Of a DNA stretch of 64,000 nt, positions 1 to 64,000 are shown in pieces. Location: NCBI GenBank assembly GCA_046725285.1, contig JBKOYG010000047.1:1024-65023 (forward strand). Reading direction: 5' to 3'. The notes under the pieces are model-generated. The model saw nothing but the letters and a program-made list of their open reading frames with translations, searched no databases and had not been told where the DNA came from. Source of the stretch: Verrucomicrobiota bacterium. Its GTDB lineage: Bacteria; Verrucomicrobiota; Verrucomicrobiia; Chthoniobacterales; UBA10450. Made by a program: the position numbers and the translations under genes. The stretch's first letter is position 1; each line of letters begins with the position of its first letter.

Positions 1-2623
1 GGTCCTGGTTGTACGGTTTGCGGCTGGCGTAATAGCGATCAATGCGGAGCCAGTGCATGATTCGGCCATGAGACACCTGTAGCTTGCCGACGACGGGGAC
101 GTTGTTTTCGGCCTGGCAGGCGATCACACACGCACTACATCCGGTGCACACATTCAAATCGATACTCATTCCCCACTGCTGCGGTGCGTCCAACGGTGGA
201 TGGGTGTAGATGCTCGGCGGCGGATGCGGCAGTTCCTCCTCTCCCGGAATTTTTTTCGCGAACTCATTATTTTCACGGTACCCATCCAACGTCGCTTCGC
301 GCACAAGACCGCGGCCCTCAATGCTGAACTGCTCCTGTGTAATTGAGAACGGATACGTGCGACCGACTTTCGTCACCCTTACGCTCTCGATCCCCTGCCC
401 TCCCGCGACGGCGAAGTGCGGATTTGCGGCCGTGAGCAGGAAGTAGCCATTAAAACCACTCTGCTCGGCAATCTTTGGCAATTCTTTCAACGCCCCCCCA
501 GCATATGGCAGCGAATCGAACTGTGGCATTTTTCGGGCATAGCCAAGTGAGACAGTAACGGAATTTTCGGCGTGGCCCGGCGATACGAGCGCCGCGATAA
601 CCAGCTCGCGTCTGACCGGCTGGCCGCCGGCGCTCTTTTCATTAATTGTGATCTGCAGCAGATCGCCGGTCAGCACGCCAAGTTTTTTAGCAAAAGCAGG
701 ACTCATTAGCGCAGCATTGTCCCACGTCAGCTTTGTAATTGGATCGGGCAATTCCTGCAGCCAGCCGTTGTTTGCATAGCGGCCATCGTCCATGGCGTAG
801 CTGCCCGTGAGCACTATCTCCGGTGATTCTGCTGTCGGCACCGACGACAGTGTCCAGGAGTTTCGCATCAGCATCGCGGCTGCACCCGCATTAAATGAAG
901 GCGATTGATCGTGGGGCTGGACGTGAGCTGCAAATCCATCGTGGAGAAAGCGTGACCAGGCGGTTTGAAAATCCCCGGGGGGATTTGTCGCGCGAAATGT
1001 TTCCTGGACCAACTCTGGCCCTTCTGTTTTCGCGAAACCGAGCACCCAGCTGAGTAATTCGCTTTCCGAGAGACCGCCGAAGATAGGCAAAATCATCGGT
1101 TGGATTGACAAGTAATCGCCATTAGCGGTGAGGGCGTCGCCCCACGATTCGAGGTAATGTGCAGCAGGAAGATGCCATTGGCTCAACGTTGATGTGACGT
1201 CCTCGTGATAACCAAGCCGCACAATTTCCGGTACGCGGTTTTGCAGCTCAGCCCAATCGAGCGGCAGGCTTTTTTGTTTGTCCTCCACCAGGCCGCGGGG
1301 TGCGTTGTAGACCGGATCGCCGCCGAGAATGAACAGGTGTTTGATCCGGCCGTCGTTAATGTCCCTGGCCAGCTGCGAAATGTCGATTGTTCGGGGATTG
1401 TGTTGAAGCTGGCGAACAACCAGCGTCTGGCCGAGATTCTTGAGCGCGGCGTTAATGGCGTACGCGAGCAATTGCACTGAGACCGGCTGGCTGGGACCGG
1501 CCAGCACCAAACTCGCTCCCGGTTTCGCCATCAGATCGTTTGCTAAGCCAGTGATCCATTGCTCGTCGAATGTGTCACCGCCGAATGCCGCCGAGCCTTG
1601 GACACTTCCCATCACCGATCCAAGAGCGGAATCATTTGTTCCTGCGAGAATTTTAGCTGCAAGCGCGTGCGTTACCGCGGCGACCTGGCTCGCAGGACAA
1701 CGTAGCCGATGGTCCGCCATCGCGCCTGTGAGCGTGAACCGATTTTCTATGACATAAAGCCGGTTCATGCTGTCTTTGGGCGCACTAACGCGGCGACGAG
1801 AGGTAAATGCGCGCACTGACGCGAGATCCCCCTGGCCGCAATCGAGAAAATCGCTGTCCAGTGCAACGATGATATCGGCGCGATCGAACTTGGGAATCGC
1901 TCGCGCCCCAGGTCCGAAAGCAGTCTGCGCCGCCACGCTTGTTCGTTGACTCAAGAAAGGCTCATAAACGCACCAGCGCATCTCCGGGAGTTTTTTTTCC
2001 AACTCTCCCCGCAAACGCTCGCGTGTGGGCGAATTCGTTTCCTCGACAAGAAACGCCAGCCCATCGCCGTGATCGGCCATAACCTTATTGTGAAGTTCTG
2101 TGATGTAGGCTTCGAAATGTGTGCGCTTACTCGTTTTCCCATTGCGGACAAATCGCTTCGAACGGGTCGGGTCGTAAAGGTCGAGAATCGACGCCTGAAT
2201 GAAAGTGTCGGTTGCCCCCGCGCTTGCTGGATGCAACGGATTGCCCTCCAGCTTAATCGGGCGGCCATCGACCGTCGTGGCGAGGAGCGGAATGGCTCCG
2301 GTGCGGCGCGGCATCGCGGTTGCGTAATACAGAAATTTTCCGGGAATCGTCCACTCAACGTTCCTTGTGAACGGAACGAGATGCAGCTCCGGCCTGCGAC
2401 AACTCGTTAGGCCAACCCCTGCCAGCGCCATGGATGCCCCCATTAATTTCAGGAAATCCCGGCGTGACCACTCGTTGCCTGTCAGCTCCGCGATACCTTG
2501 TGGAAATTCGCGCTCGAGCCATTGCCGGAATTCGGGCGAATCGCTGTATTCGCCCAGACTGCGCCAGTAACGCTTGCCCCCGCTACTGCGGGACTCCGGT
2601 GGATGGTGGAATACGCGTTTCAT
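1..2623 (-). CDS. actB: Alternative complex III subunit ActB (molybdopterin-like domain fused to a 4Fe-4S ferredoxin domain). The 3' end runs off the window.
   Basis: Absent from the ORF track because there is no stop inside the window. My reverse translation from the ATG at 2623 gives MKRVFHHPPESRSSGGKRYWRSLGEYSDSPEFRQWLEREFP..., a twin-arginine-like SRRDFLKLMGASMALAG, and CTGCSACVIACQAENN near the window edge. ATGA start/stop overlap with actA. Confidence 0.85.
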   Translation of the reverse strand, partial: MKRVFHHPPESRSSGGKRYWRSLGEYSDSPEFRQWLEREFPQGIAELTGNEWSRRDFLKLMGASMALAGVGLTSCRRPELHLVPFTRNVEWTIPGKFLYYATAMPRRTGAIPLLATTVDGRPIKLEGNPLHPASAGATDTFIQASILDLYDPTRSKRFVRNGKTSKRTHFEAYITELHNKVMADHGDGLAFLVEETNSPTRERLRGELEKKLPEMRWCVYEPFLSQRTSVAAQTAFGPGARAIPKFDRADIIVALDSDFLDCGQGDLASVRAFTSRRRVSAPKDSMNRLYVIENRFTLTGAMADHRLRCPASQVAAVTHALAAKILAGTNDSALGSVMGSVQGSAAFGGDTFDEQWITGLANDLMAKPGASLVLAGPSQPVSVQLLAYAINAALKNLGQTLVVRQLQHNPRTIDISQLARDINDGRIKHLFILGGDPVYNAPRGLVEDKQKSLPLDWAELQNRVPEIVRLGYHEDVTSTLSQWHLPAAHYLESWGDALTANGDYLSIQPMILPIFGGLSESELLSWVLGFAKTEGPELVQETFRATNPPGDFQTAWSRFLHDGFAAHVQPHDQSPSFNAGAAAMLMRNSWTLSSVPTAESPEIVLTGSYAMDDGRYANNGWLQELPDPITKLTWDNAALMSPAFAKKLGVLTGDLLQITINEKSAGGQPVRRELVIAALVSPGHAENSVTVSLGYARKMPQFDSLPYAGGALKELPKIAEQSGFNGYFLLTAANPHFAVAGGQGIESVRVTKVGRTYPFSITQEQFSIEGRGLVREATLDGYRENNEFAKKIPGEEELPHPPPSIYTHPPLDAPQQWGMSIDLNVCTGCSACVIACQAENNVPVVGKLQVSHGRIMHWLRIDRYYASRKPYNQD

Positions 2624-3345
2624 CGGTGGCACCCCTGACAATTTGTCGGCGGATTGACGTTCCAGTGCTCTTTCAATGTCTGGCCAATCTCTGCCTGGGT
2701 AAGTTTCTTCTTCTTCGAAAAATCCTCGCGCGCGTCGTGCGGCTGTCCGTACTTCGCGACAAATTCCGCCGGGTTCACATCGTCCGGTTTCCAATCGAGA
2801 TTGAAAACCTGATCTTCCGGCCGCAGAAAATTCTCCGGGTGCCGATGGCATTCGAGGCACCACGCCATGCTATGCGGTTGGGCCAAATACACCGTCGACA
2901 TATGATTAACGGGGCCGTGACAACTGAAACAACTAATGCCGCGGTTCACGTGCGCCGAGTGATTGTAGTAAACGTAATCGACGGTGCGATAGATCCACAC
3001 CCACTCCACCGGGTTACCTGTTTTCCAGCTCGCCCGCACCGGCTCCAGTTTCGGATTATCTTTTTGCACCTGCGTATGACAGTTCATGCAGGTCTGGGTA
3101 TTCGGCACATTGGACTGGGCCGCCATTTCTACAAAGCTGTGACAATAGCGGCAATCCATTCCCAGTTGCGTCACATGGATGTCGTGCGGAAACGGTACCG
3201 GCTGGATCGGTTCGTAGCCAATCTTTGTGTATTTGGGAGTCACGTAATACCAGGTCGCTGCGCTCAATCCGCAGACCGCAATGATGCCGCAGATTACCAG
3301 TTTGAGCGGTATCCAGTTGGTCCAGCGTGGAAAGAAGTTGGCCAT
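2620..3345 (-). CDS. actA: Alternative complex III subunit ActA, membrane-anchored pentaheme cytochrome c
   Basis: 241-aa ORF with an N-terminal TM helix and five CxxCH motifs (CRYCH, CMNCH, CFSCH, CLECH, CQGCH). Sits immediately upstream of actB. Confidence 0.85.
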   Translation of the reverse strand: MANFFPRWTNWIPLKLVICGIIAVCGLSAATWYYVTPKYTKIGYEPIQPVPFPHDIHVTQLGMDCRYCHSFVEMAAQSNVPNTQTCMNCHTQVQKDNPKLEPVRASWKTGNPVEWVWIYRTVDYVYYNHSAHVNRGISCFSCHGPVNHMSTVYLAQPHSMAWCLECHRHPENFLRPEDQVFNLDWKPDDVNPAEFVAKYGQPHDAREDFSKKKKLTQAEIGQTLKEHWNVNPPTNCQGCHR

Positions 3346-3636
3346 GGGATATCAGATTAATGCGGCCCGGCGGGATAAAACCAGCCACCAAAATGAATCA
3401 ATATTGAAATCGAAATGCGCTGCGTTCAGACGGTCCAAAAGGGTTAAGGTTTCTTGTTCGCCTGAGGGGAGGCCAAGATTCTATGAATCTGTCTGGCGGT
3501 AGCAAAATAAAATTCATTACCCAATCTCATGCTCACAAAGCGTTCGCCTTTTCCGATACAGAAAAGCAAACAATTGGCAAAAACTGATGACGTCAAAAGT
3601 TCGGCAGCGCGTCAAGTCTGGAAGCACGACATTTGA

Positions 3637-5354
3637 TTGTGCAGGGGAAGCTGTCAGCATCATTGCTGCAACATTCCGGTAGAACGTTCTGTGAACTCAG
3701 CACGAAAACGACGACTGGTTTTATTTGTGGCTGGATTTTTCATTGGGGTAATGGCGTGCGCGGAAGAGGCCGATGTTCTTTTCACGAACGGCAATATTTA
3801 CACGGTTAACGATCGCCAGCTGCACGCTGAAGCCGTGGCGGTAAAAGGCGCCAGGATCGTTTTCGTTGGCTCAGATGAACACGCAAAGAAATTTCATGCA
3901 GGGAAGATTGTCGATCTTCACGGTCGCACCGTCGTGCCGGGCTTCACTGACTCGCATTGCCACATCTTCGGCATCGGCGAGCGCGAAATGCGATTGAACC
4001 TCGAAGGGACAGATTCACTTAAAGATTTTCTGGTTAGGGTGAAGGAGCGTGTCGACAAAACGGGCCCCAGTAAATGGATCACTGGACGGGGTTGGATCGA
4101 AACGTTTTGGAAACCGCCGCAATTTCCAACGTGTCATGACCTCGACAAGATCGCGCCAAACAATCCTGTATTTCTCACACGCGCGGATGGCCACGCCTCA
4201 GTTGCTAATTCGGCCGCGCTAAAAATCGCCAAAATCGATAAGAACACGCCGAATCCGTTTGGCGGACAAATTCTAAAAACCAACGGCGAGCCAAACGGGA
4301 TGCTGGTCGATAACGCACGAGGAACATCCCCAAACCCACTGAAGGCGAGCGCGGAGAGGCGTTGCTGCGCGGAATCGACCGCGAGATTAAGCTCGGCTGG
4401 TGCGAAATCCAGAACGCTGGCAGTCACAAACAAGATATCGACATTGTCCGGAAAGCATTCGACGCCGGCAAAATCAAAATTCGATTCGTCAACGCCGTCT
4501 ACGGTCCCGGTTGGGATGCACAGAATTTTTTGCGCGACGGACCTACGATTAACGCGTTCGATCATCATTTCACCCAGCGCACGGTCAAAGTGATCTTCGA
4601 CGGTGCGCTCGGCTCCCGCGGCGCGGCGCTCTTGAAGCCGTACAGCGATGCGCCCGAAACGTCTGGTTTTCTCACGGAAAAACCCGAAGACCTGCAGCCA
4701 ATGTTTGCTGAAGCGCTGCGCCGCGGCATCCACATTGAAACGCACGCGATCGGCGATCGCGCTAACCGATTGATCCTCGACCTCTACGAGCAGGCGTTTA
4801 AAGCCGTGCTGCCTGAGGATCGAAAAATTCGTGAACCGCGCTGGCGGATCGAGCACGCGCAAATTGTCGATCCAGGCGATATCCCCCGGTTTGCGAAACT
4901 TGCTGTCATCCCTTCGATGCAGCCGTCACACGCAATCAGCGATCTGTTTTTTGCGCCGCATCGACTTGGAATGGATCGCCTCGTCGGCGCGTATGCGTGG
5001 CAAAGCTTCATCAAGAGCGGCTGCATCATCGCCGGCGGGTACGATGCGCCGGTCGAGCGAGGCGAACCAATGATCGAATTCTACGCCGCCGTCGCACGCA
5101 AAAGCATCAAGGGCGAATCAGGCGAAGGCTGGCATCCCGAGCAAGCTGTCTCGCGTGAAGACGCGCTCAAAATGTTTACGATCTGGCCAGCTTACGCCGT
5201 GTTCGAAGAAAAGGATAAGGGCTCAATTGAAGTCGGCACACTTGCCGATTTCACGGTCCTGTCTCAAGACATCATGAAAATTCCCGAGATGGAAATTCTT
5301 GAAACACAGAACGAAATGACAGTGATTGGCGGTGAGATTATTTACCCGCACTGA
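3637..5354 (+). pseudogene. YtcJ-like metal-dependent amidohydrolase, split by a 1-nt frameshift near 4318-4322
   Basis: ORF 3637-4593 carries the N-terminal half (VPGFTDSHCHIFGIG ... GMLVDNA). ORF 4362-5354 carries the C-terminal half (IETHAIGDRA, RIEHAQIV, GGYDAPVE). Frame 3 already reads NIPKPTEGERGEALLRGID from 4323, directly after DNA in frame 1. A likely signal peptide follows the GTG at 3691. Confidence 0.7.
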
Positions 5355-5374
5355 ACCGGAAAATCTTGGCTTTC

Positions 5375-6001
5375 ATGAACCACGAACACGCCCACCGGCT
5401 CTTGAGAGCGAGTCACCCGCGAATGGCTGAGTTGATTGCTCGCTCGCGTCGTTACAACATCACGCCGGCGGTTTCCATTCGACCATTCGACGCACTCGCC
5501 GAATCAATCGCCTACCAGCAGTTGAGCGGCAAAGCCGCGGCCACTATTTTTGGCCGGGTGCGAGCTCTCTATCCGAAGAAAAAATGGCTCGACCCTGAAC
5601 GACTTCTGGCAACGCCGGATGAAACACTTCGCGCGGCTGGTCTTTCACGCGCAAAAACCGCTGCGTTAAAGGATCTCGCGGCAAAGACAATCGACGGCAC
5701 CGTGCCATCCGGCCGCGCGCTCATCCGCATGAGCGACGACGAGATCATCGAACGTCTGACTGCGGTGCGCGGAATTGGCCGCTGGACCGTCGAGATGCTT
5801 CTCCTTTTCGATCTCGGCCGACCGGATGTCTGGCCCGTCGATGATTACGGTGTGCGCAAAGGTTTCGCGAAAACTTTCGGTCGAAAACTCCCCACTCCAA
5901 AACAGCTCATGAAGTTCGGGGAGAAATGGAGGCCATACCGCTCAGTGGCTGCCTGGTATTTCTGGCGAGCGCTGGACCAAAAAGAGAAGGTAGAAAGTTA
6001 A
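5375..6001 (+). CDS. DNA-3-methyladenine glycosylase II-like base-excision repair protein (HhH-GPD family)
   Basis: Motifs SIAYQQLSGKAAATIF, LRAAGLSRAKTAALKDLA, VRGIGRWTVEMLLLFDLGRPDVWPVDDYGVRKG. ATG at 5375 is preferred over the TTG at 5366. Confidence 0.75.
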   Translation: MNHEHAHRLLRASHPRMAELIARSRRYNITPAVSIRPFDALAESIAYQQLSGKAAATIFGRVRALYPKKKWLDPERLLATPDETLRAAGLSRAKTAALKDLAAKTIDGTVPSGRALIRMSDDEIIERLTAVRGIGRWTVEMLLLFDLGRPDVWPVDDYGVRKGFAKTFGRKLPTPKQLMKFGEKWRPYRSVAAWYFWRALDQKEKVES

Positions 6002-6099
6002 AAGAGTTAGAATGGATTCCCCTTCTAACGTTGTAACTTTGTAACTCTTTTACCATTTAACTTGCGGTCGACGCCGCGCCTCATTAGAAGGAGCGCATT

Positions 6100-6960
6100 A
6101 TGGCGATGATTCACGTTAACCGGGGCGCAACAAGTTTGGGGGCATTTTCCGAAGAAGAAGTTCGCGAAGGTCTGCGTACTGGCCGTTTCGCTCCCACGGA
6201 TATCGGGTGGCGCGAAGGAATGGCGAACTGGGAGCCCCTTTTGCAGTTCCCAGAGTTGGGCGCCGCTGCACCCGTCGCGCCGCCTGCGCACATTGGCCCA
6301 ACCGCAACGCCAGAAGCGGTCGCCCCGCGCAGCGGTTTGCCGTGGGATCATCGGCAAGAGCGCGGTTTTTTTAATGCGTTTATCGAGACCCTGGTGATGG
6401 TGCTTACGAAACCGAGCGAGGCTTTCACAGCCATGAAGCGCGAGGGCGGTCTGGGCGAACCGCTCATTTACGCACTCATCGGTGGATGTATTGGAGGGCT
6501 GGTCTCGTTTCTGTTCTCCATAGGCTTACAATCCGTCGGCCTCTTCGCTGATCGCCACGACACATTCGCTGCGATGGCTGGGATGGGCATCGGCTCCGCA
6601 GCATTTATTGTTCTGCTACCTCTGTTCGTTGTGATCGGCCTGTTCATCGGTAGCGCTATCGTGCACCTCTGTCTGATGATCGTTGGCGGCGCGAATCATT
6701 CCTTTGAAACCACTTTCCGCGTCCTCGCTTTTTCTCAAGGCTCCACCGGTCCTTTGCAGATGGTCCCAGTTTGTGGCGGACTGATTGCCGGGGTTTGGGC
6801 GCTCGTCTGCAACTGCATCGGGTTAGCGCGCGCCCATGAAACCGACACCGGCCGCGCTGTTCTTGCCGTCTTTCTGCCGCTGATTGTTTGCTGCGGCGGC
6901 GTACTGCTCATTGCGTTCATGTTCGGTGCAATGGGCGCTTGGAGCGGGTCACACCATTGA
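6100..6960 (+). CDS. Membrane protein with an N-terminal GYF_2 (DUF4339)-like domain and a C-terminal Yip1-like multi-TM domain
   Basis: N-terminus IHVNRGATSLGAFSEEEVREGLRTGRFAPTDIGWREGMANWEPL, then FFNAFIETLVMVLTKPSEAF followed by about 5 hydrophobic helices. Confidence 0.6.
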   Translation: MAMIHVNRGATSLGAFSEEEVREGLRTGRFAPTDIGWREGMANWEPLLQFPELGAAAPVAPPAHIGPTATPEAVAPRSGLPWDHRQERGFFNAFIETLVMVLTKPSEAFTAMKREGGLGEPLIYALIGGCIGGLVSFLFSIGLQSVGLFADRHDTFAAMAGMGIGSAAFIVLLPLFVVIGLFIGSAIVHLCLMIVGGANHSFETTFRVLAFSQGSTGPLQMVPVCGGLIAGVWALVCNCIGLARAHETDTGRAVLAVFLPLIVCCGGVLLIAFMFGAMGAWSGSHH

Positions 6961-6971
6961 CTTCCGTCAAA

Positions 6972-7394
6972 ATGCGACTGCGCGTCCAGTGCCTTGCTCC
7001 GGGTGAAATCGATCATGAGTTAATCTGGCTAAGCGTCTCGCTTCTATCGCTGGGCCTGGCGGCAGCCTGGCTAACAGTTGGTTTGCCATGGCCGCGCTGC
7101 GCGTTTCATGCGATCACTGGTCTGCCATGCGCCACGTGCGGCATGACGCGGTGTGGGATTCGATTCTTTCACGGTCATTTTCTCGCTGCATTGAAATGGA
7201 ATCCTCTCGTGTTCATGGCACTCTGCGGTCTGACAGCCTTTGACCTCTACGCCTTTGCGACGCTCGTAACGCGCGGGCCGCGTTTGCGGATCTGTTGTTA
7301 CAAGCAAACGGCGAAAACATTTGTGCGCGTCGCGGTCATCTCGGCGCTCACGCTAAACTGGATTTATCTGCTGATGCACTGGCGCAATTTTTAG
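6972..7394 (+). CDS. DUF2752-like small membrane protein
   Basis: Motif CAFHAITGLPCATCGMTRC followed by TM helices. The ATG at 6972 avoids overlap with the upstream gene. Confidence 0.55.
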   Translation: MRLRVQCLAPGEIDHELIWLSVSLLSLGLAAAWLTVGLPWPRCAFHAITGLPCATCGMTRCGIRFFHGHFLAALKWNPLVFMALCGLTAFDLYAFATLVTRGPRLRICCYKQTAKTFVRVAVISALTLNWIYLLMHWRNF

Positions 7395-7396
7395 AC

Positions 7397-7446
7397 GGTA
7401 GGGCGTTTCTCCGAAACGCCGGGCGTCTGACACAGACGCCCTGCAA
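7397..7446. repeat. REP-like palindromic element (GTAGGGCG...CGCCCTGCA) with two internal 7-bp hairpins
   Basis: Hairpins GGCGTTT-ctccg-AAACGCC and GGGCGTC-tgacaca-GACGCCC, directly after the stop of the DUF2752 gene. Confidence 0.6.
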
Positions 7447-7508
7447 TGCCAGGCAATCACAATTTTCTTCGTGCACTTCTTGTGCTTCGTGATTGAACTT
7501 CTGACGAC

Positions 7509-8462
7509 ATGAGAATCCTAGTCACAGGCGGGGCTGGTTTCATCGGCTCCCATCTCGTTGAACGCCTGCTTGCGGCGGGACACGCAGTCGTCATCCTCGA
7601 TGACTTCAACGATTTTTACGATCCACAAATCAAGCAGGCAAACATTAGCGGTTTCGCCAAAGATGTGGCCGTTCACCATGTCGATCTTCGAGATGGCGCG
7701 TCAGTCCGAAATTTGTTTCATCGCGAGAAGTTTGAAGTGATCGCGCATCTGGCCGCTCGTGCAGGCGTTCGGCCATCGATTCAGCACCCGCAGCTCTACT
7801 ACGACACCAATGTCACTGGCACATTGCATCTGCTCGAAGCCGCGCAAATGACCGGAGTTGAGAGATTCATCTTCGCCTCCAGTTCATCGGTTTACGGGGC
7901 CTCGAAGACGGTACCCTTTTCTGAGGATCAACATCTGACTCAGACACTCAGTCCGTACGCTGCGACAAAAATTGCAGGCGAATTTCTTTGCTCGACTTAC
8001 TCACACCTTTACCAACTCCGCGTCGTGGCACTCCGTTACTTCACTGCGTACGGACCGCGGCAACGGCCGGATCTGGCAATCCATCAATTCACCAGGCGCA
8101 TTCATGCTGGCCAGCCGATCGAGCAATTTGGCGACGGCACCACGCGGCGCGATTATACTTACATTGATGACGTAATTCAGGGAACGATCGCCGCATTTCA
8201 ATACGAAGGACTGCTCTTCGATATCTTTAATCTGGGTGAGAGCGAGACGATCCAACTCAAAGACTTGATCGTTGCGATCGAAAATGCGCTCGGGAAAAAA
8301 GCGAAAATCAATCAGCTGCCAGAGCAGCCCGGCGATATGCCCTTCACTTGCGCGGATATTTCGAAAGCGAGAAAACTTCTCGGCTACAAGCCAACCATCC
8401 GGCTGAACGAGGGATTGCCGCGTTTCGTAGCGTGGTTTTTGGAGTCTCAAAATCGAAAGTAG
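7509..8462 (+). CDS. NAD-dependent nucleotide-sugar epimerase/dehydratase (UDP-glucuronate 4-epimerase-like)
   Basis: Rossmann motif VTGGAGFIGSHL and catalytic YAATK (SPYAATKIAGE). Length 317 aa. Confidence 0.8.
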   Translation: MRILVTGGAGFIGSHLVERLLAAGHAVVILDDFNDFYDPQIKQANISGFAKDVAVHHVDLRDGASVRNLFHREKFEVIAHLAARAGVRPSIQHPQLYYDTNVTGTLHLLEAAQMTGVERFIFASSSSVYGASKTVPFSEDQHLTQTLSPYAATKIAGEFLCSTYSHLYQLRVVALRYFTAYGPRQRPDLAIHQFTRRIHAGQPIEQFGDGTTRRDYTYIDDVIQGTIAAFQYEGLLFDIFNLGESETIQLKDLIVAIENALGKKAKINQLPEQPGDMPFTCADISKARKLLGYKPTIRLNEGLPRFVAWFLESQNRK

Positions 8463-10594: not shown

Positions 10595-11260
10595 CTACTT
10601 CTTAATCTCCAGATAGGTTCGCGAGAGCACGTGATTAGTACCGGGCTGAAGTTCTTCGATGCGCATTTGTTTTAAAAACCAGCGGCCTTCGATTTTCTGC
10701 GCGGAGACCACTTCGAAGCGCTTGGCCAGCTTAGCGTTCCAATCGTAGCCCTCCATTCGCATCAGCGCGCCGCTAGCCTTATCAACCCACAGCAGCACGT
10801 TGGAGTATTGCGATTCGCGCGAGGGCGCGCGCAGTTGCAATTTCCAGCAGTTGCGAGTGCGAACATTTTCCTCACCCAAGACGCGGGCGCTCGGCCAGTA
10901 GAGAAATTTGAACGCCAGGTCCTCGTAGCTCACACCGGTGCCACGAATTTTTTGGTTAAGCTTTGATGCCGCAACCTTTTCGGTTTCACCGCCGGTCACA
11001 AGATCAAGGCGCGAGCTGTTTTCTCCGAGACGCAACTGCAAAATCTCATCGGGATTTTCGAATGAATAGCGAATCAGCGGACCGTTTTGGACCAGGTGAA
11101 ACGGAAGCACCACGTCATTTTGACGAAGTTGTCCCTGAAGATCGATTTGCTGTCGCGACTCAATCATGCGTACCGAGTTGAGAATATCTTTGGCTGACGG
11201 TGGCAGGTCGGCGAAGATCGGCAGTGAAAACAGCAAGAAGAACGCGGCAATTTTTCGCAT
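10595..11260 (-). CDS. LolA-like outer-membrane lipoprotein-sorting family protein (secreted)
   Basis: Signal peptide MRKIAAFFLLFSLPIFA. The overall pattern (YEDLAFKFLYWP, CWKLQL, RWFLKQMRI) resembles the LolA_like / DUF4367 fold family. Confidence 0.55.
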   Translation of the reverse strand: MRKIAAFFLLFSLPIFADLPPSAKDILNSVRMIESRQQIDLQGQLRQNDVVLPFHLVQNGPLIRYSFENPDEILQLRLGENSSRLDLVTGGETEKVAASKLNQKIRGTGVSYEDLAFKFLYWPSARVLGEENVRTRNCWKLQLRAPSRESQYSNVLLWVDKASGALMRMEGYDWNAKLAKRFEVVSAQKIEGRWFLKQMRIEELQPGTNHVLSRTYLEIKK

Positions 11261-55962: not shown

Positions 55963-56250
55963 CTACTTCGGCGGAACCGTTATCCAGCCGCCGACACCAA
56001 GCGCAGTCAGCACGATTTCCACTGCCAGCGAACAAAGGATGAGTCCCATTACACGGACAAGGACGGACGCGCCCTGCCGACCGATCACCCGCAGAATCGC
56101 ATCCGAAAAAAGCAGCAGGAGATAGGTCAGGAAGAGCACCACCAGAAGGACAACGCCAGTTTCGATCCGCTCCGGCACCGTATAAACATCGTTATCAGTT
56201 AAGACAATCACGGCCATCATCGCGCCCGGCCCGGCGATGACGGCCCGGCC
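55963..56250 (-). pseudogene. marC: marC (MarC/UPF0056 family) 3' fragment
   Basis: Reads ...AVIAGPGAMMAVIVLTDN...SVLVRVMGLILCSLAVEIVLTALG. There is no N-terminal half upstream, where a REP hairpin and hicBA follow instead. Confidence 0.7.
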
Positions 56251-56324: not shown

Positions 56325-56562
56325 TCAGCCGAAGAGCCGCTGAATCAATTCGTCGCGACTAATTTCAAAATGCGCGGCCGCGTCGCCAAGAATTCCGGCC
56401 AGCGTTCCCACTTTAAGTGGATCTGGGAATCGTGACATGATGCTGCCCGCGCTCAGTGGTCGTCAGCCGCAGATGGCTGCCGGTTTGCCGCGTGACTTCG
56501 TAGCCCAAGCGCCCCAGCCGTTTGGCAAGATCCGCTCCCGAAATGTCTCTCGGCAATTTCAT
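56325..56562 (-). pseudogene. hicA: hicA toxin gene, frameshifted
   Basis: My translation from the ATG at 56562 gives MKLPRDISGADLAKRLGRLGYEVTRQTGSHLRLTTTERGQHHVTIPRST*. The +1 frame continues PDPLKVGTLAGILGDAAAHFEISRDELIQRLFG* (stop at 56325). The shift lies near 56415-56425. Confidence 0.7.
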
Positions 56563-56592
56563 CTTACCAACGAGAGCGGTGTCAACTGGCAC

Positions 56593-56799: not shown

Positions 56800-56898
56800 G
56801 CGTTGCGGGCCAAAAGCGTGTTTCAATTACGCCGAGAGTCTCTGCGATTCGGAGTTCATTGGCAAGAATTGTCGCAGTCCGTTGATTACCGCGTCGAG

Positions 56899-56981
56899 AA
56901 TCGAGCTGAGGGGGTCAGCGAGATAGAAGGTAAAGTCGCGAGGGTAGCGACGAGCGAGCTGGGCAGCGAACGAGTTTCAAT
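56899..56981 (+). repeat. Structured repeat, single A-type unit (locus 1)
   Basis: AATCGAGC-[GCTGA ggggg TCAGC]-GAGATAGAAGGTAAA-[GTCGC gagggta GCGAC]-GAGCGAGCTGGGCAGCGAACGAGTTTCAAT. Abuts the truncated marC 5' fragment. Confidence 0.8.
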
Positions 56982-57173
56982 GACCTGGCCAGCGGTCATG
57001 GCGGCCACGAGGATGATGGCGGCGTAAATCACAGCACGCAGCGCCGTCAGATGCCGCTCTGACCGGGTAAGCGCAGCGGTCAGCCCGGCAAACAACGCTA
57101 CGTTGCCAATTGGATCAATCGTCTTCCAAAGCGTCGCAAAATCCTTGCTGATTTTAATTAACAGAGGCGACAT
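56982..57173 (-). pseudogene. marC: marC 5' fragment a (codons 1-64), truncated by the repeat
   Basis: MSPLLIKISKDFATLWKTIDPIGNVALFAGLTAALTRSERHLTALRAVIYAAIILVAAMTAGQVI, after which the track ORF continues into repeat-derived sequence. Confidence 0.7.
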
Positions 57174-57367: not shown

Positions 57368-57616
57368 AATCGAGCTGAGGGGTTCAGCGACATAGAACAC
57401 GTCGCGATCGGGTATCGCGCGGGTAGACGGCAGCGCAGCTAGGTAGCTGGCGCAAGCACGGGGCCGTGCGAGTGATCAACGTAAAAGTGACGAGGGTAGG
57501 AGCGAGTGAGCGTGGGCAGCAAACGAGTTTCAATGGAGCGAGTGGGATGAGCGACATAGAAGGCAAAGCTGCGAGGGTAGCAGCGAGTAAGCGTGGGCAG
57601 CGAGCGAGTTTCAAAT
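57368..57616 (+). repeat. Structured repeat array (locus 2): B unit, C block, degenerate A, full A
   Basis: The B unit has GCTGA-ggggt-TCAGC (57374-57388). The C block 57415-57485 is about 90% identical to 61024-61096. The last A unit has GCTGC-gagggta-GCAGC (57568-57584). It ends in GAGTTTCAAAT, fused to codon 12 of a second marC 5' end. Confidence 0.8.
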
Positions 57617-57819
57617 CTTTGCTAATCTTGATCAAAAGCGGAGACATATGCCGGAGCGTGCGTTTTATCCTGATACGAACGAAGGATCAAGCACGAGCAA
57701 AGTTGGCGGTGTGAAATGGGCCATTGCTGACCTCAAAGAGATTATCGAGTTTCTCGCGGAAGATATGACCGACGAACGGCTTGTCTCTACCTGCGCGACA
57801 CCGCTACAATTTGGTTTCG

Positions 57820-60260: not shown

Positions 60261-60551
60261 TCAAGCCTGATCGGACAGGGGATCGAGTTGTTCGAGAACC
60301 GTACGCTCGCCGAACGGACCAGCCAGTAATCGCGCTTGCACACGAACGCGATCGCCTATCGTCACATCTGGCGCTTGGGCCGCAAATAGAATTAGGGACT
60401 GCCCCTCTGCGGGCTGGATAAAGTCGTCACTTCGGCCACGCGAGAGATTACGATACACTTCGATTTCGATCTCGTGTCCTTGACCCTCGCTTGCTGGCAC
60501 GATCGCTCGAACAGTGCCTTCAACCACCGTCTTATTTGGCTTCGCCAGCAT
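60261..60551 (-). CDS. Small hypothetical protein convergent with the M6 protease gene
   Basis: Clean ORF (the track gives 60261-60635; the ATG at 60551 gives 96 aa). No domain recognised. Confidence 0.35.
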   Translation of the reverse strand: MLAKPNKTVVEGTVRAIVPASEGQGHEIEIEVYRNLSRGRSDDFIQPAEGQSLILFAAQAPDVTIGDRVRVQARLLAGPFGERTVLEQLDPLSDQA

Positions 60552-60761
60552 ATTCAAAGCTAATCGCCCGCCCCTATGAACGTGACCGCGATACGCAAGC
60601 GATAAAAATTGCCGCTCACGGGCCGAGAATGACAAAGATCACATAAAGAGCGAGCTTTTATTCGCACGTCAACCCGGTTTGGTGGCAGCGCTCACCAGTA
60701 TCCCTTTCCCCTTACTTTCTACGGAAACAGCCAGGCGAAGTTTCGAAACCTCAATTTTTTT

Positions 60762-60818
60762 CAGAAAACGACCGGCCACTTTGAGCGAGTGCATGTGAAT
60801 GCCGATCGCGTCGAGAAT
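60762..60818 (-). pseudogene. marC: marC internal fragment
   Basis: The minus strand reads ILDAIGIHMHSLKVAGRFL. This matches the MarC region that follows GQ(L/V)(V/I) (E. coli ...[23 protein letters not shown]), i.e. the expected continuation of fragment a. It starts exactly at the end of repeat locus 4. Confidence 0.55.
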
Positions 60819-61110
60819 GGAGCAACTGGGGGGAGCGACATAGAAGGTAAAGTCGCGAGGGTAGCGACGAGCGAGCTGGGCAGCGAGCGAGTTTCAATGG
60901 AGCTGACGGGTTCAGCGACATAGAACACGTCACGATCAAGGGAATGGAGCTTTGGGGAAAGCGACATAGAAGGCAAAGCCGCAATGGGTAGCGGCGAGTG
61001 AAGTGGGAAGCGAACGAGTTTCAATCGCGCGGGTAGACTGCAACGCTGCTAGGGTAGCTGGCGCGAGCACGGGGTCGTGCGAGTGATCAACGTAAAGGAG
61101 CGAGTGCAGA
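60816..61110 (+). repeat. Structured repeat array (locus 4): A, B, A', C block
   Basis: A has GTCGC-gagggta-GCGAC (60852-60868). B has GCTGA-cgggt-TCAGC (60902-60916). A' has GCTTT-gggg-AAAGC (60949-60962) and GCCGC-aatgggta-GCGGC (60978-60995). C block at 61024-61096. Lies 56 nt from the stop of the nuclease-ATPase gene. Confidence 0.8.
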
Positions 61111-61165: not shown

Positions 61166-63609
61166 TTATACCCGCCGGCTTCTGGCGACGTTAGCTGCTG
61201 CACTTTGTTCAACCTTATCACATTCAGACAAACCCCTTGTGATTACGTTTTGGCACATCTGTTTCCCCTCTGCATCTGAGAGGTCATTGACACAAGTTCG
61301 TAAGTAATTCAGGAAGGCTCGAGTCCTAGCCAGTCTCTCGTCCAGAAGGGTCGTCTCAACAATTTTCGGCCGGACCGACGCATCCGTGATTGGCGTGTCG
61401 ATGCACATTGCATCCAAGTATTGAAACTCGGTGACCAAATTGTTGATATGGTAAGATCCGCGGGTAGTGATTCGAAGCGTGGACACCTTCATCTCGTCCT
61501 GAGTTACCGCAGAACTTGTTTCTAACGAGCCGTTTTCGACCAGAGTAGTTAGGTGCCTCTGGATTGTAGCAACGTCAAAGTAAAAAGACTCGAGATAAGA
61601 AGCGACAGCCATGTATGTGACCCAGTTGCCGGTCTCATGCTGATCGTGGAATCGGCTGAGATATTCAAGCATCAAAAGTCGAATGAAATGCTCCTTTGGG
61701 TCGGCATGGTAGATGTCGAAAAGATTAACAAAGATCGAAAACTTAGGGTCATACTGATCGTAGTCACCGTACAAAAGTGTTTTTACGGCTTCGAAGCTCG
61801 GCAGAAAATACGTGCCTGACTCTTTTATTTTGCCGAGTATTTTGCCCGTATCCAGATGGCCGCTTGTTAAAACGCGTTTCGTCAAATCGAGTAGCGTGCG
61901 GACGTTCCCGTTCGATATCGCCGCTAACATGTGGATAGCACTTGTATCTTTGCGAGCTGAAAATTCACAGCATGCGAAAATCTTAGCTACACTCGGAAGT
62001 CGAAAAGAAATATCCTTGTTCTTCATGGCGTCCTGAAGGACAGGCGTGTCGATTTCGCCAAGCGCAAGCTTTTGCGCAAACTTAAACCTTCGCTTAAGGA
62101 CAAGTGGCAGATCGGGAGAACCAATCGTGAACGTCTTCGGTGCAATTGAATCGAGAACGCCGCTGCGGAAAGACAGATAAAATGTTGTCGGCCTTAAACA
62201 AATGAACACCACGCACTCCCAATCGCGTGCAATCGCGGACGCCTTGAGAAAGGCTGCTTCTTGAATCGCGGGGTCGCGGCGATCTAAATTATCGAAAAAA
62301 CAGCAATCGAGCGTCCACGTCCGCGCTTCAGGTGTCGAATAACTGCTTGGTAATAGCTGTGACGATCCTTTAAGTGTTCCTGAATAAATGCCTTCTCCTC
62401 CTGTTTCGTTGCAGTGAGGTCGTCGCCATGAAGCTTGTACCTGGAACTACGATGAAATCGCTCAATTTGCGAATGAAGTGCGCCACGGACGATTGAGTCT
62501 TCGAGAATATCGATGTTGTGACGGTCGAGCAATTGAGCCTCAAGCTGGGCATATATAAAATCATTTACCTCCGCTGCGCTGTCGGGACGATCGAGGAAGT
62601 TTGCTTCGAGCTGTATGTAGCTCGACAGCGTGTCGCTTGCACCGACTAACCGGAGGTAATTCAAAAATGTCGTCTTACCTTGACCAACATCCCCTAGCAA
62701 GATAAAGGGCTTTTCGTTATCGTAGCCGATGATCGTGTTCGTTACCTGCCCTGTGTCGGCGCTCATCACATTTCTGGTCACAAGTTGGTCTGCCGCCGAG
62801 CGACGGCGTAACATATCCTTAGCGAATGCAATCAGGTGCTCGTTCGCTTGTGGAGACACATAGCATTTTTCCAAAAACAGAAGAGTATTCTCGGTCCGCG
62901 ACAGGATATCCCAGACTGTTTGTAGAATGTAAGAGAGTTCATTTATGAATCGGTTGCGCTCAGAAGTGATGGGATACCCGGGAATGCTCAAGCTGAGCTT
63001 TGCTGGTGCCGGCTTCTTTCGGCTCTCCATCAGCAGTGGATAAATCTCATTTGCTGCTACCGCAGTTTTGCTGAAGCACATCCAGTAACGACGGAAGTTG
63101 TCGCGAATCCTTGACAATGAGTCGAAGACGATGACCTCGCGTTCCTCGATGTTTTGTGATTGGACATATGTCAAAGCGATAATCCATTGATGTCCGTTTG
63201 AGATCGCTATGTACCGCGCTCCTAGTGACGCGGCGTAACCAAGCGCTTGCCGAAGTGCGGCACCTGATTCGGGTGTTTCTTTCTCAAGAAGGGCGAACGC
63301 GACTGGTTCTGGATCGAACACTATCTCCTGCACAACGAAGGAGATGTCCGCGCGCTTCGCTTCAACAACTAATGCAATGCTATTTGCAACGGAAAAGACG
63401 TAATCAGCGTATCCCACCGCTCGGCAATAGTGCTCTGCATCGACGTCAGTTTTTTCCCAATCCAACACGTCGAACAGCAAGACGTCCAATACTTTCAGTC
63501 GCGTGTCTGCTTCGTTAGCGCGATTCGACACTGCTGTTAGTTCGTCAAAACGATTCTGTAACTCTGCGAACGCAGCTTCGGGCGTCCAAGGAATAGTCCG
63601 AACAAGCAT
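61166..63609 (-). pseudogene. PD-(D/E)xK (HsdR-N/Mrr-like) nuclease domain + ORC/Cdc6-like AAA+ ATPase + winged-helix protein, interrupted by a frameshift in an A6/T6 run
   Basis: Nuclease motifs NEADTRLKVLDVLL...YADYVF...ALVVEAKR...YIAISNGHQW. Walker A LLGDVGQGKTTF. With one extra T at 62295-62300 the reading continues SIAVFFDNLDRRDPAIQEAAFLKASAIARDWECVVFICLRPTTF, which gives a Walker B and joins track ORFs 62284-63714 and 61166-62212. Sensor-2-like NGNVRTLLDL. Confidence 0.7.
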
Positions 63610-63783
63610 GGCTGCAATCGTACAGCCCAAGGGGCTCAACGAAAGTTTTTTCCTTCTCGTAAGTGTAACAGCATTTTCAGCTAAGAACCGCTGGAATCTG
63701 CACCGCTGTCGCAACCTCAGTGAAATTGCGTGTCGCAGCCGCCTTCATTCGGAACTGCCGGTGTTCGGGTGCAATCGACATAA

Positions 63784-64000
63784 TCATGGAACAAATCGAT
63801 CAAACACTTCCTGCTTGTGCCACGCGAGAGCATCTGGATGGGGCCAATAGTGTTCGTCCGCAGGCAGTACGATCTTTCTCCGGTCGATTTCTAGTGCCGG
63901 GAATTTTGATACGCTAGCGTTTGCAATCTTTGGATTCACTATGACTTCGTACTGGTCCGAAATAGTGAATATCCCGCGGTCAAATGCCCAATGAGCTGAC
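63784..64000 (-). CDS. HNH endonuclease (HNH_2-like) C-terminal part. The 5' end lies beyond the window.
   Basis: My reverse translation from the window edge gives SAHWAFDRGIFTISDQYEVIVNPKIANASVSKFPALEIDRRKIVLPADEHYWPHPDALAWHKQEVFDRFVP* (stop at 63784-63786). The HxAFDRG...I pattern is typical of HNH_2. Confidence 0.6.
   Translation of the reverse strand, partial: SAHWAFDRGIFTISDQYEVIVNPKIANASVSKFPALEIDRRKIVLPADEHYWPHPDALAWHKQEVFDRFVP

Follow-up and report, generated by a model that had tools for sequence, protein, structure and literature searches.

A nuclease-ATPase gene with ORC/Cdc6-like folds at the edge of a variable island in a Verrucomicrobiota genome: a widespread family with a plausible role in defence

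Positions 61166-64000 of a 64,000-nucleotide (nt) stretch from a Verrucomicrobiota bacterium (Chthoniobacterales, UBA10450; GenBank assembly GCA_046725285.1, contig JBKOYG010000047.1, forward-strand positions 1,024 to 65,023; the whole stretch is hereafter the window) hold the 3' end of an HNH nuclease gene and a large gene whose product joins an N-terminal PD-(D/E)xK nuclease to an ORC/Cdc6-like ATPase and a winged helix-turn-helix (wHTH). Our best explanation, to which as a whole we give about an even chance, is that the large protein is a self-acting nuclease-ATPase that pairs ATP-switched assembly on invading DNA with HsdR-type cleavage, and that its gene lies beside a TagI-like HNH gene. 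With the same middling confidence, and taken jointly with a defence mechanism for the large-protein family, the block may be the end of a variable, horizontally acquired island that carries two independent single-gene nucleases.

An earlier, sequence-only reading of the window had described an AT-richer block with two co-oriented minus-strand genes at the window edge, and composition, the open reading frame (ORF) map and translation agree with it. The G+C content of 61166-64000 is 0.490, against a mean of 0.553 (standard deviation 0.012, minimum 0.529) for windows of the same size in 1-55000 (49.0% versus 55.3% ± 1.2), which we count in support of a horizontally acquired island, and the minus strand is filled by the HNH tail and the large nuclease-ATPase gene. 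The block is laid out as follows (L001 is the locus of the closest relative):

63784..64000, minus strand: 3' end of the HNH_2 endonuclease gene, 71 codons and a stop (translation), the 5' part lying beyond the window edge
63610..63783, minus strand: intergenic spacer between the HNH gene and the large gene (ORF map; blastn against L001)
61166..63609, minus strand: nuclease-ATPase-wHTH gene with a -1 frameshift, 814 amino acids (aa) when frame-restored, start ATG 63609, stop 61166-61168
62295..62300, minus strand: T6 homopolymer, one base short; one added T restores the frame

As found, the large gene consists of two ORFs (62284-63714 and 61166-62212), and insertion of one T into the T6 run gives ...SIAVFFDNLDRR... 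and a continuous protein. The ~815-aa protein of the sequence-only reading is matched in the length of this restored product and by its collinear homologues, but the window holds no intact ORF for it. We found 290 homologues of the restored protein, nearly all of 790-830 aa and collinear, the best being 93% identical and 814 aa long, and a profile search of 1.84 billion representatives returned 3181 clusters (counted at 50% identity) at E ≤ 1e-3 and 932 at E ≤ 1e-30, almost all of ~800 aa. Invariant columns were read from a 64-sequence alignment, and the 814-aa protein was modelled with AlphaFold (predicted local distance difference test score, pLDDT, 84; predicted template-modelling score 0.70). 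The resulting motif set is kept down to ~23-26% tblastn identity in E. coli prophage members and in Klebsiella and Shewanella plasmid members, the figure for the E. coli copy being deduced from its closeness to the Klebsiella copy. The N-terminal part of the protein comprises:

63040..63609, minus strand: PD-(D/E)xK nuclease of the HsdR-N/type IIG class, residues 1-190 (invariant motifs; domain model pLDDT 90; Foldseek)
63499-63516, minus strand: nuclease motif NEADTR
63403-63405, minus strand: nuclease motif residue D69
63355-63363, minus strand: nuclease motif E83-A-K85 (EAK)
63235-63249, minus strand: nuclease motif QxxxY
63184-63198, minus strand: nuclease motif NGHQW
62725..63039, minus strand: conserved helical linker, residues 191-295 (model secondary structure; conserved P200, P202, K204, Y212, P213, R218, N219, W233)

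The full catalytic core of this fold is present and invariant throughout, namely D…(D/E)xK, the upstream E-bearing helix and QxxxY, with E33, R37, D69, Y70, E83, A84, K85, Q121, Y125, N138, G139 and Q141 unchanged in the alignment. Searched on its own with Foldseek, the nuclease domain matched the BpuSI nuclease domain (E 5.5e-3, probability 0.99) and further V. vulnificus HsdR (3h1t), EcoR124I HsdR, SPARDA and Cas4, and in BFVD it matched the fold of a phage HsdR-N protein (probability 1.0). Pfam HSDR_N is just above its cut-off in two distant members (P0240, P0252) and reaches E 0.075 for the window protein. These results sustain the HsdR-N/Mrr-type N terminus that had been read from the letters alone; the motifs quoted in that reading, here and in the ATPase, all lie at verified coordinates and nearly all on invariant columns. 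From its complete catalytic set the nuclease domain is likely to be the effector. It shares with the HsdR (EcoR124I, V. vulnificus) and BpuSI nuclease domains the fold and the E-x-x-T-R helix, D, E-x-K, Q-x-x-x-Y and N-G, but here it is coupled to an ORC/STAND-like switch ATPase rather than to an SF2 translocase or a methyltransferase, and it lacks HsdM/HsdS partners. The remainder of the protein is made up of:

62111..62724, minus strand: P-loop ATPase core, residues 296-500 (motifs; Foldseek; AAA_16 in distant members)
62671-62694, minus strand: Walker A GDVGQGKT, fitting GxxGxGK[ST], with G306, G309, G311 and K312 invariant
62282-62304, minus strand: Walker B AVFF/DNLD, spanning the frameshift
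62189-62200, minus strand: CLRP of the ATPase core, with invariant R473
61721..62110, minus strand: helical lid, residues 501-630, with sensor-2-like GNVRTLLDL at 61883-61909 and N567 and R571 invariant
61436..61699, minus strand: wHTH, residues 638-725 (model helices 638-652, 666-674 and 680-693; strands 696-698 and 711-714)
61166..61435, minus strand: C-terminal helical tail, residues 726-814, with invariant F-x-Y-x-D-(4)-D-T-P (F729…D738-T-P) and the stop codon at 61166-61168

Comparison of the whole model with the PDB by Foldseek placed Orc1, Orc4 and Cdc6 first (E 5.6e-5 to 5e-4), the best 14 matches all being ORC/Cdc6 at probability 1.0, but with low TM-scores (0.16-0.40); Apaf-1, plant NLR resistosomes, RdrA and TnsC ranked below them. 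The ORC/Cdc6 matches run over ~470-540 alignment columns onto whole Orc1/Cdc6 chains of 366-440 aa, chains that comprise AAA+ and winged-helix domains. The hallmarks listed for ORC-like ATPases (PMC12839542) are present in the large protein: a helical insert after strand 2 (long in the model, residues 345-431, between the strand at 331-337 and that at 434-440), a lid with a sensor-2 Arg (GNVR) and a C-terminal winged helix. Both the folds and the motifs are thus in keeping with the P-loop ATPase, Cdc6-like sensor-2 and probable winged helix of the sequence-only reading. By sequence and by profile, searches of the PDB gave no ORC and only P-loop matches to IF-2; the Pfam ORC-CDC6-like model scored E 0.017 (14 bits, below its cut-off of 27) against the window protein, and no STAND-type NTPase model in Pfam matched it. 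In distant members AAA_16 exceeds its cut-off of 32.6 bits (P0240, 42.7 bits; P0252, 38.3 bits) and NACHT and nSTAND5 stay below theirs.

Beyond the Walker A residues, the ATPase and lid columns invariant in the alignment are D440-N441-L-D443, R473, N567 and R571, and from the intact P-loop and the sensor Arg residues we infer that the ATPase binds nucleotide. Strand 4 is followed by an Arg that never varies; the next residue is Pro in the protein of the window and in the majority of members, and Glu or Gln in the others. A D-x-x-D motif and Arg-Pro after strand 4 recall the NACHT/NB-ARC STAND NTPases, and the GNxR of the lid recalls the GDAR sensor-2 of Cdc6; this combination of NACHT-like and Cdc6-like traits places the ATPase in a continuum between ORC/Cdc6 and STAND proteins and files it cleanly in neither. 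With Orc1/Cdc6 proteins (1fnn, 2qby, 2v1u) the large protein shares the AAA+ core with its insert after strand 2, the G-x-x-R lid sensor-2 and the C-terminal winged helix; it differs from them in a D-N rather than D-E Walker B, in Arg-Pro at the sensor-1 position, in the added N-terminal restriction-type nuclease and helical tail with its F-Y-D…DTP motif, and in belonging to a sporadic and mobile family rather than being a core replication gene.

The Walker B motif lacks the catalytic Glu, as Asp440-Asn441 is found in all 64 aligned sequences as well as in the distant E. coli, Klebsiella and Shewanella members. Set beside textbook AAA+ enzymology, this invariant Asn suggests a switch rather than a motor. 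The ORC/Cdc6–STAND-like ATPase and winged helix would accordingly act as an ATP-bound switch: contact with invading DNA, or with an intermediate of replication or transfer, would cause the protein to oligomerise, oligomerisation would juxtapose the N-terminal HsdR-type PD-(D/E)xK domains, and the juxtaposed domains would cut DNA, such that the invader is restricted or the infected cell killed. ORC/Cdc6, TnsC and STAND relatives share ATP-bound oligomerisation on DNA or on a ligand, and activation of the nuclease by oligomerisation is proposed here by analogy to Avs/bNACHT proteins and ORC-type assemblies. Elements that might recognise the trigger are limited to the winged helix, the helical insert and the conserved C-terminal tail. 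A more specific version, which we put forward only tentatively, is that an ORC/Cdc6-type origin-recognition module, working as an Asp-Asn-locked ATP switch, directly senses invading DNA and assembles the HsdR-type nucleases on it; candidates for the sensed DNA are replication origins, intermediates of replication or transfer, and phage and plasmid DNA ends.

The same architecture could be read as that of an abortive-infection sensor of the Avs (AVAST)/bNACHT type, in which a STAND module binds a phage protein and oligomerises and the nuclease then attacks all cellular DNA. Nuclease effector, NTPase and winged helix follow the Avs/bNACHT layout in a single polypeptide (an N-terminal PD-(D/E)xK-type nuclease, a P-loop NTPase of the ORC/STAND lineage and a winged helix), these are likewise single-gene systems on mobile elements or islands, and the Walker B D-x-x-D with the Arg-Pro after strand 4, the presence of Apaf-1 and plant NLR resistosomes among the fold matches and the AAA_16 and weak NACHT/nSTAND matches of distant members all point in this direction. 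Against it, ORC/Cdc6 proteins outrank STANDs in the fold search, the best folds being Orc1/Cdc6 and not NLRs, and the GNxR sensor-2 is Cdc6-like; no Avs or bNACHT model of PADLOC matched the large protein, nor did Pfam NACHT above threshold. At ~814 aa it also lacks a big C-terminal TPR, WD40 or other sensor, as only ~90 helical residues follow the winged helix, with no TPR, WD40 or LRR match in Pfam, whereas sensors of at least 400 aa are usual among the proteins on which a census of defence STANDs centres (PMC12803255). We therefore regard a protein-sensing Avs/bNACHT-type trigger as unlikely, and the self-acting nuclease-ATPase assembling on DNA as the better account.

No family model covers the large protein. 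Pfam, NCBIfam and PADLOC returned nothing significant for the restored window protein or for its close homologues (P0001 and P0014 have no PADLOC family), two other homologues matched the PtuA ATPase model of PADLOC marginally (E 0.02-0.03), and the matches of ten distant members were weak and confined to single domains (type IIG restriction endonuclease N terminus, DrmMI N terminus, mad8 ATPase). Direct assignment to a family was rejected on these sub-threshold or single-domain matches, in line with the sequence-only reading, which had been unable to name a system. BFVD held no match to the full architecture. Relatives of ~540-570 aa without the nuclease were considered as cases of effector swapping, and P0233, the one that was checked, begins 68 nt from the end of its contig and is probably a truncated call. 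In our assessment the family is an uncharacterised variation on the nuclease-NTPase defence theme, short of a categorically new kind.

The homologues are labelled "hypothetical" except for two labels derived from the N-terminal domain, and "predicted type IV restriction endonuclease" is the label of relatives in JGI and in one plasmid record. This label, together with the HsdR-type nuclease, the lack of a conserved methyltransferase partner that a type IV system would predict, and a winged helix that could read DNA, would suit a single-polypeptide, nucleotide-dependent restriction enzyme of type IV- or McrBC-like logic that reads a modification or sequence and cuts only foreign DNA, without cell death. 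We consider this doubtful: the large protein has no recognisable SRA, EVE, YTH or ASCH reader, the source labels are based on the N-terminal domain alone, and the ATPase is of neither McrB nor helicase type. As in McrBC, an AAA+ NTPase would govern a PD-(D/E)xK nuclease whose DNA cleavage involves no cognate methyltransferase, but McrBC consists of two proteins, of which McrB is a ring translocase that hydrolyses GTP and reads modified bases through an N-terminal domain, and neither PADLOC nor Foldseek gave a sequence or fold match between McrBC and the large protein.

The phyletic spread of the large-protein family is patchy, taking in Verrucomicrobiota, Planctomycetota, Bacteroidota, Acidobacteriota, Desulfobacterota, Nitrospirota and Proteobacteria, and many copies are on or near mobile DNA. 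In a tblastn search, 31 plasmids proved to carry full-length relatives, and 14 of these plasmids are conjugative. The carriers include Klebsiella IncF plasmids, WP_047062017.1 being an intact Klebsiella plasmid orthologue; on a Shewanella plasmid the gene lies between IS30 and a type II restriction-modification (RM) system. Among 5426 complete E. coli genomes eight carry a copy, always chromosomal, and two of the eight copies are disrupted, one by IS1 and the other by a frameshift or stop. Inspection of two of the E. coli genomes placed the gene within a lambdoid prophage similar to Qin, where the replication genes (replisome organizer, DUF977) lie on one side of it and hokD on the other, an interval that we take to be a typical accessory-gene slot of such prophages:

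WP_001349602.1 / WP_112869014.1, family members on E. coli chromosomes, at L050 12001-14505 and L052 7001-9505

In metagenomic loci, integrases, transposases, DUF2726 proteins and a conjugative-element methylase-helicase adjoin the gene. Among the 142 proteins encoded by the two closest genes to either side, PADLOC models matched AbiEi/Eii, PLD-helicase, MADS mad1/mad6, PDC-S41/S26/S01, a type II methyltransferase and others. Genes 6.5-10 kb away, meant as a control, also matched defence models (type III methyltransferase, type I S subunit, AbiEi, mad5) and so provide no clean background. This context fits mobile cargo of the defence-island type in a suggestive way, and it makes an anti-phage or anti-plasmid role of the family plausible; in this respect the candidate defence role proposed in the sequence-only reading holds up, from the plasmids, the prophage and the RM, AbiE and MADS neighbours, but its single two-gene module does not (see below).

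Such surroundings also raise the question whether the protein could instead serve a mobile element in its maintenance, replication initiation or target selection, as a DNA-binding ATPase of the ORC/DnaA/TnsC/IstB kind with a nicking or cutting nuclease. The nearest folds (ORC/Cdc6, TnsC and similar) and the copies beside plasmid RepB and IS30, beside integrases or transposases, or directly after prophage replication genes would be expected of such a factor. However, a transposase, integrase or replication gene is never a conserved partner in the 39 family loci surveyed, many copies have ordinary chromosomal surroundings that contain no mobile genes, the nuclease belongs to a restriction-enzyme class (HsdR-N/type IIG) and has its full catalytic set, and both the frequent disruption of E. 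coli copies (two of eight) and the patchy distribution suit an accessory, costly gene. We judge a mobile-element factor to be distinctly improbable, more so than the Avs/bNACHT-type and type IV-like alternatives.

Several observations weigh against a self-acting defence nuclease of the proposed kind. There is no obvious large sensor domain for a trigger in the ~90 residues past the winged helix. The Walker B Asn is no proof of lost hydrolysis, as D443 could substitute for the missing Glu, an idea modelled on the D-x-x-D/E motifs of NACHT-type NTPases. The large gene in this window is not intact. No homologue of the family was found by tblastn in 50,697 phage records. The literature search turned up no experiment on, or published characterisation of, the family, and in the literature and the DefensePredictor supplements, some of which were covered in part, we found neither the family nor the accessions or peptide strings of its E. 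coli and Klebsiella orthologues. Finally, the survey of homologue neighbourhoods revealed defence and mobile genes near several loci, but L005-L007 and L013 show no defence neighbours; given these loci, the defence-island enrichment is suggestive only.

The second gene of the block was described in the sequence-only reading as an HNH_2-type nuclease of which the last 71 codons are visible, and translation, PADLOC, NCBIfam and the orthologue in L001 all confirm this. The frame (63784-63999, minus strand) comprises exactly 71 codons and a stop; its product matches the HNH model PDLC04132 of PADLOC at E 1.8e-9 and, at E 9.6e-11 but below the family cut-off, the C-terminal end of NCBIfam NF045808. 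The L001 orthologue is complete (6688-7680, 330 aa) and contains PF13391 (HNH_2), as do all 120 homologues listed; its PADLOC HNH match reaches E 2.4e-19. Against NF045808, a family of phosphorothioate-DNA-binding restriction endonucleases, the HNH protein scores 91.9 bits, short of the curated 180, and over the HNH half only (positions 156-283 of 284). A profile of 26 HNH homologues matched TagI (6ghs) at E 9.3e-4, with profile positions 94-277 aligned to TagI residues 85-272, that is, to the last part of the reader domain and to the HNH domain. On record there is no match of the HNH protein to Pfam SRA, and the reader-domain part of the gene lies outside the window. The protein thus resembles TagI, an SRA-HNH enzyme of 311 aa against its own 330 aa, in an alignment covering HNH_2 and the latter half of the reader domain, but the similarity is weak (E 9e-4) and the SRA half has no Pfam confirmation. 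We consider the SRA assignment of the N-terminal half to be moderately supported, and the HNH protein presumably to be an independent, SRA-HNH-like (TagI-like) enzyme, of the kind presumed to act as a modification-dependent type IV restriction endonuclease. The HNH family itself returned 553 matches, and the 120 listed (P0267-P0386), mostly from soil Verrucomicrobiota metagenomes, share 68-92% identity. In its abundance and conservation (more than 100 clusters) this HNH_2 protein resembles a lineage-wide gene more than a sporadic defence gene.

That the HNH nuclease and the nuclease-ATPase cooperate as one two-gene defence system, as the sequence-only reading had it, is in our view very improbable. 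The genes are co-oriented, 174 nt apart and both low in G+C, and the same pair is present in the closest relative, where the 330-aa HNH_2 gene precedes a large gene of 87.6% nucleotide identity. However, when we compared the predicted neighbours of 39 family loci all against all, the HNH gene adjoined the large gene in one locus, and no neighbour family was common to more than four loci besides the query itself, by which a conserved partner was rejected. In L002 (86% protein identity) the HNH slot (5040-7796) is taken by a PLDc_2 protein and an AAA_16/Schlafen-like helicase of the DUF2075 type, and other nuclease systems may be exchanged at this site upstream of the large gene. The neighbours in L003 are a type I RM system, Abi_C, a relaxase and an HTH protein; those of the other loci examined, distant relatives included, are unrelated or housekeeping genes. 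Moreover, in L001 a mobile ~85-nt repeat, missing at this place in the window by blastn, separates the two genes, the spacer there being ~150 nt longer and including one repeat copy; the HNH family is far more abundant and conserved than the large-protein family; and the SRA-HNH layout is self-sufficient in TagI. A consensus scan of the window spacer (63610..63783) found no convincing promoter or terminator. The co-occurrence in only one of 39 loci argues for two adjacent single-gene systems, one of them frameshifted.

Without the added T, translation from ATG 63609 would give a 441-aa N-terminal product, the remainder being out of frame. L001 carries T7 where the window carries T6, and in the other relatives the run is interrupted by TTTTCTTC-type codons, so that the T run is not a conserved slippery site; a programmed frameshift or phase variation was rejected on these grounds. 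Compared with L001, the restored window gene has a ratio of nonsynonymous to synonymous substitution rates of 0.073 overall, 0.070 upstream and 0.077 downstream of the break, and since purifying selection is strong and equal on both halves, the lesion would be either very recent, making this copy a young pseudogene, or a homopolymer sequencing error. The large gene is also broken, into two or three ORFs, in five of the 39 other loci (L017, L025, L028, L034 and L048). Three of these five belong to assemblies named MFD, presumably long-read metagenome-assembled genomes and hence prone to homopolymer error, and such errors may inflate the apparent rate of pseudogenisation in the family.

On its low-coordinate side the block is bordered by a variable stretch, and the mobile-looking repeats and toxin-antitoxin modules noted there in the sequence-only reading are both present, as an ~85-nt element in seven copies and as HicA with an adjoining 77-aa ORF and a second HicA/HicB pair. 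The repeat reads gAATGGAGC…AGCGACATAGAAGGtAAAG…CGAGGGTAG…GAGTTTCAA, and its seven copies are confined to 56.9-61.1 kb of the window:

60807..61096, plus strand: cluster of ~85-nt dispersed intergenic repeats and a duplicated stretch also found at 57368-57647; borders the low-coordinate side of the block
56890-56982, 57368-57647, ~58370 and 60807-61096: sites of the ~85-nt repeat in the window
~1483-1547, 4373-4460, 7746-7830 and 11005-11216: sites of the ~85-nt repeat in L001
58856-60253: Peptidase_M6 (immune inhibitor A-like) gene, between repeat clusters
60261-60635: 124-aa ORF without a family match, adjoining the Peptidase_M6 gene

The repeat recurs with sharp borders in at least 120 soil metagenome contigs among unrelated flanking genes, from which it looks like a dispersed element of an abundant soil lineage, akin to repetitive extragenic palindromes or miniature inverted-repeat transposable elements (REP/MITE-like). 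A cassette recombination site of the integron/attC type was rejected, as the repeat has no significant fold, no Rfam match and unrelated flanks. Within this stretch HicA (56413-56592) and the adjoining 77-aa ORF, a presumed antitoxin without a Pfam match, interrupt marC: its N-terminal part occupies 56886-57173 (Pfam MarC positions 4-61) and its C-terminal part 55963-56220 (positions 128-199). A second, synonymously diverged marC start (MSPLLIKISKD) is found at ~57615-57647, and NCBI contig L054 has the same gene order around the split marC, which suggests repeated insertion or recombination at this gene. The second HicA/HicB pair and then the Peptidase_M6 gene and the 124-aa ORF come after the marC stretch; the latter two are missing in L001, which is otherwise syntenic and has marC immediately after the large gene. 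L001 also served as a proxy for the region beyond window position 64000, as an exact 61-nt search gave no match among metagenome contigs and a HicB look-up yielded short related contigs only. Upstream of its HNH gene (1827-6653) it encodes an 830-aa DEAD/Helicase_C protein, a DUF2726 protein and several small ORFs without a known family, which is probably the gene set just past the window edge and could be further defence cargo.

Among published systems, the closest in concept are the ORC/Cdc6-centred anti-invader systems predicted by comparative genomics, in which an inactive restriction endonuclease precedes the wHTH and HerA/FtsK are partners (PMC10853773). The large protein has in common with these "capture" systems an ORC/Cdc6-family ATPase, a restriction-fold domain, a wHTH, mobile neighbourhoods and a predicted anti-invader role, but its restriction endonuclease is N-terminal with predicted activity and it has no partner gene. 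ORC-like ATPases of the BrxC/DUF499 type have been described in BREX (PMC12839542). No system in these two papers or in the census of defence STANDs (PMC12803255) matches the architecture reported here.

For this genome the consequence is modest, as its copy, at the edge of a variable island and beside an ordinary type IV-like HNH enzyme, is frameshifted or mis-sequenced. For the family it could be larger: if the protein is a true defence enzyme, a compact, self-contained and widely distributed system (~930 clusters in at least seven phyla, on Klebsiella conjugative plasmids and in E. coli prophages) is missing from current catalogues, with no model in PADLOC 2.0, Pfam or NCBIfam. An ATPase that stands between ORC/Cdc6 initiators and STAND/NLR switches could show how an origin-binding module was turned into an immune trigger, and whether a hydrolysis-impaired (Asp-Asn) AAA+ protein serves as a pure assembly switch for a nuclease. 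Should origin recognition indeed have been converted to restriction, the family would be the DNA-sensing counterpart of protein-sensing Avs within one 800-aa polypeptide. The E. coli and Klebsiella orthologues make the family directly testable.

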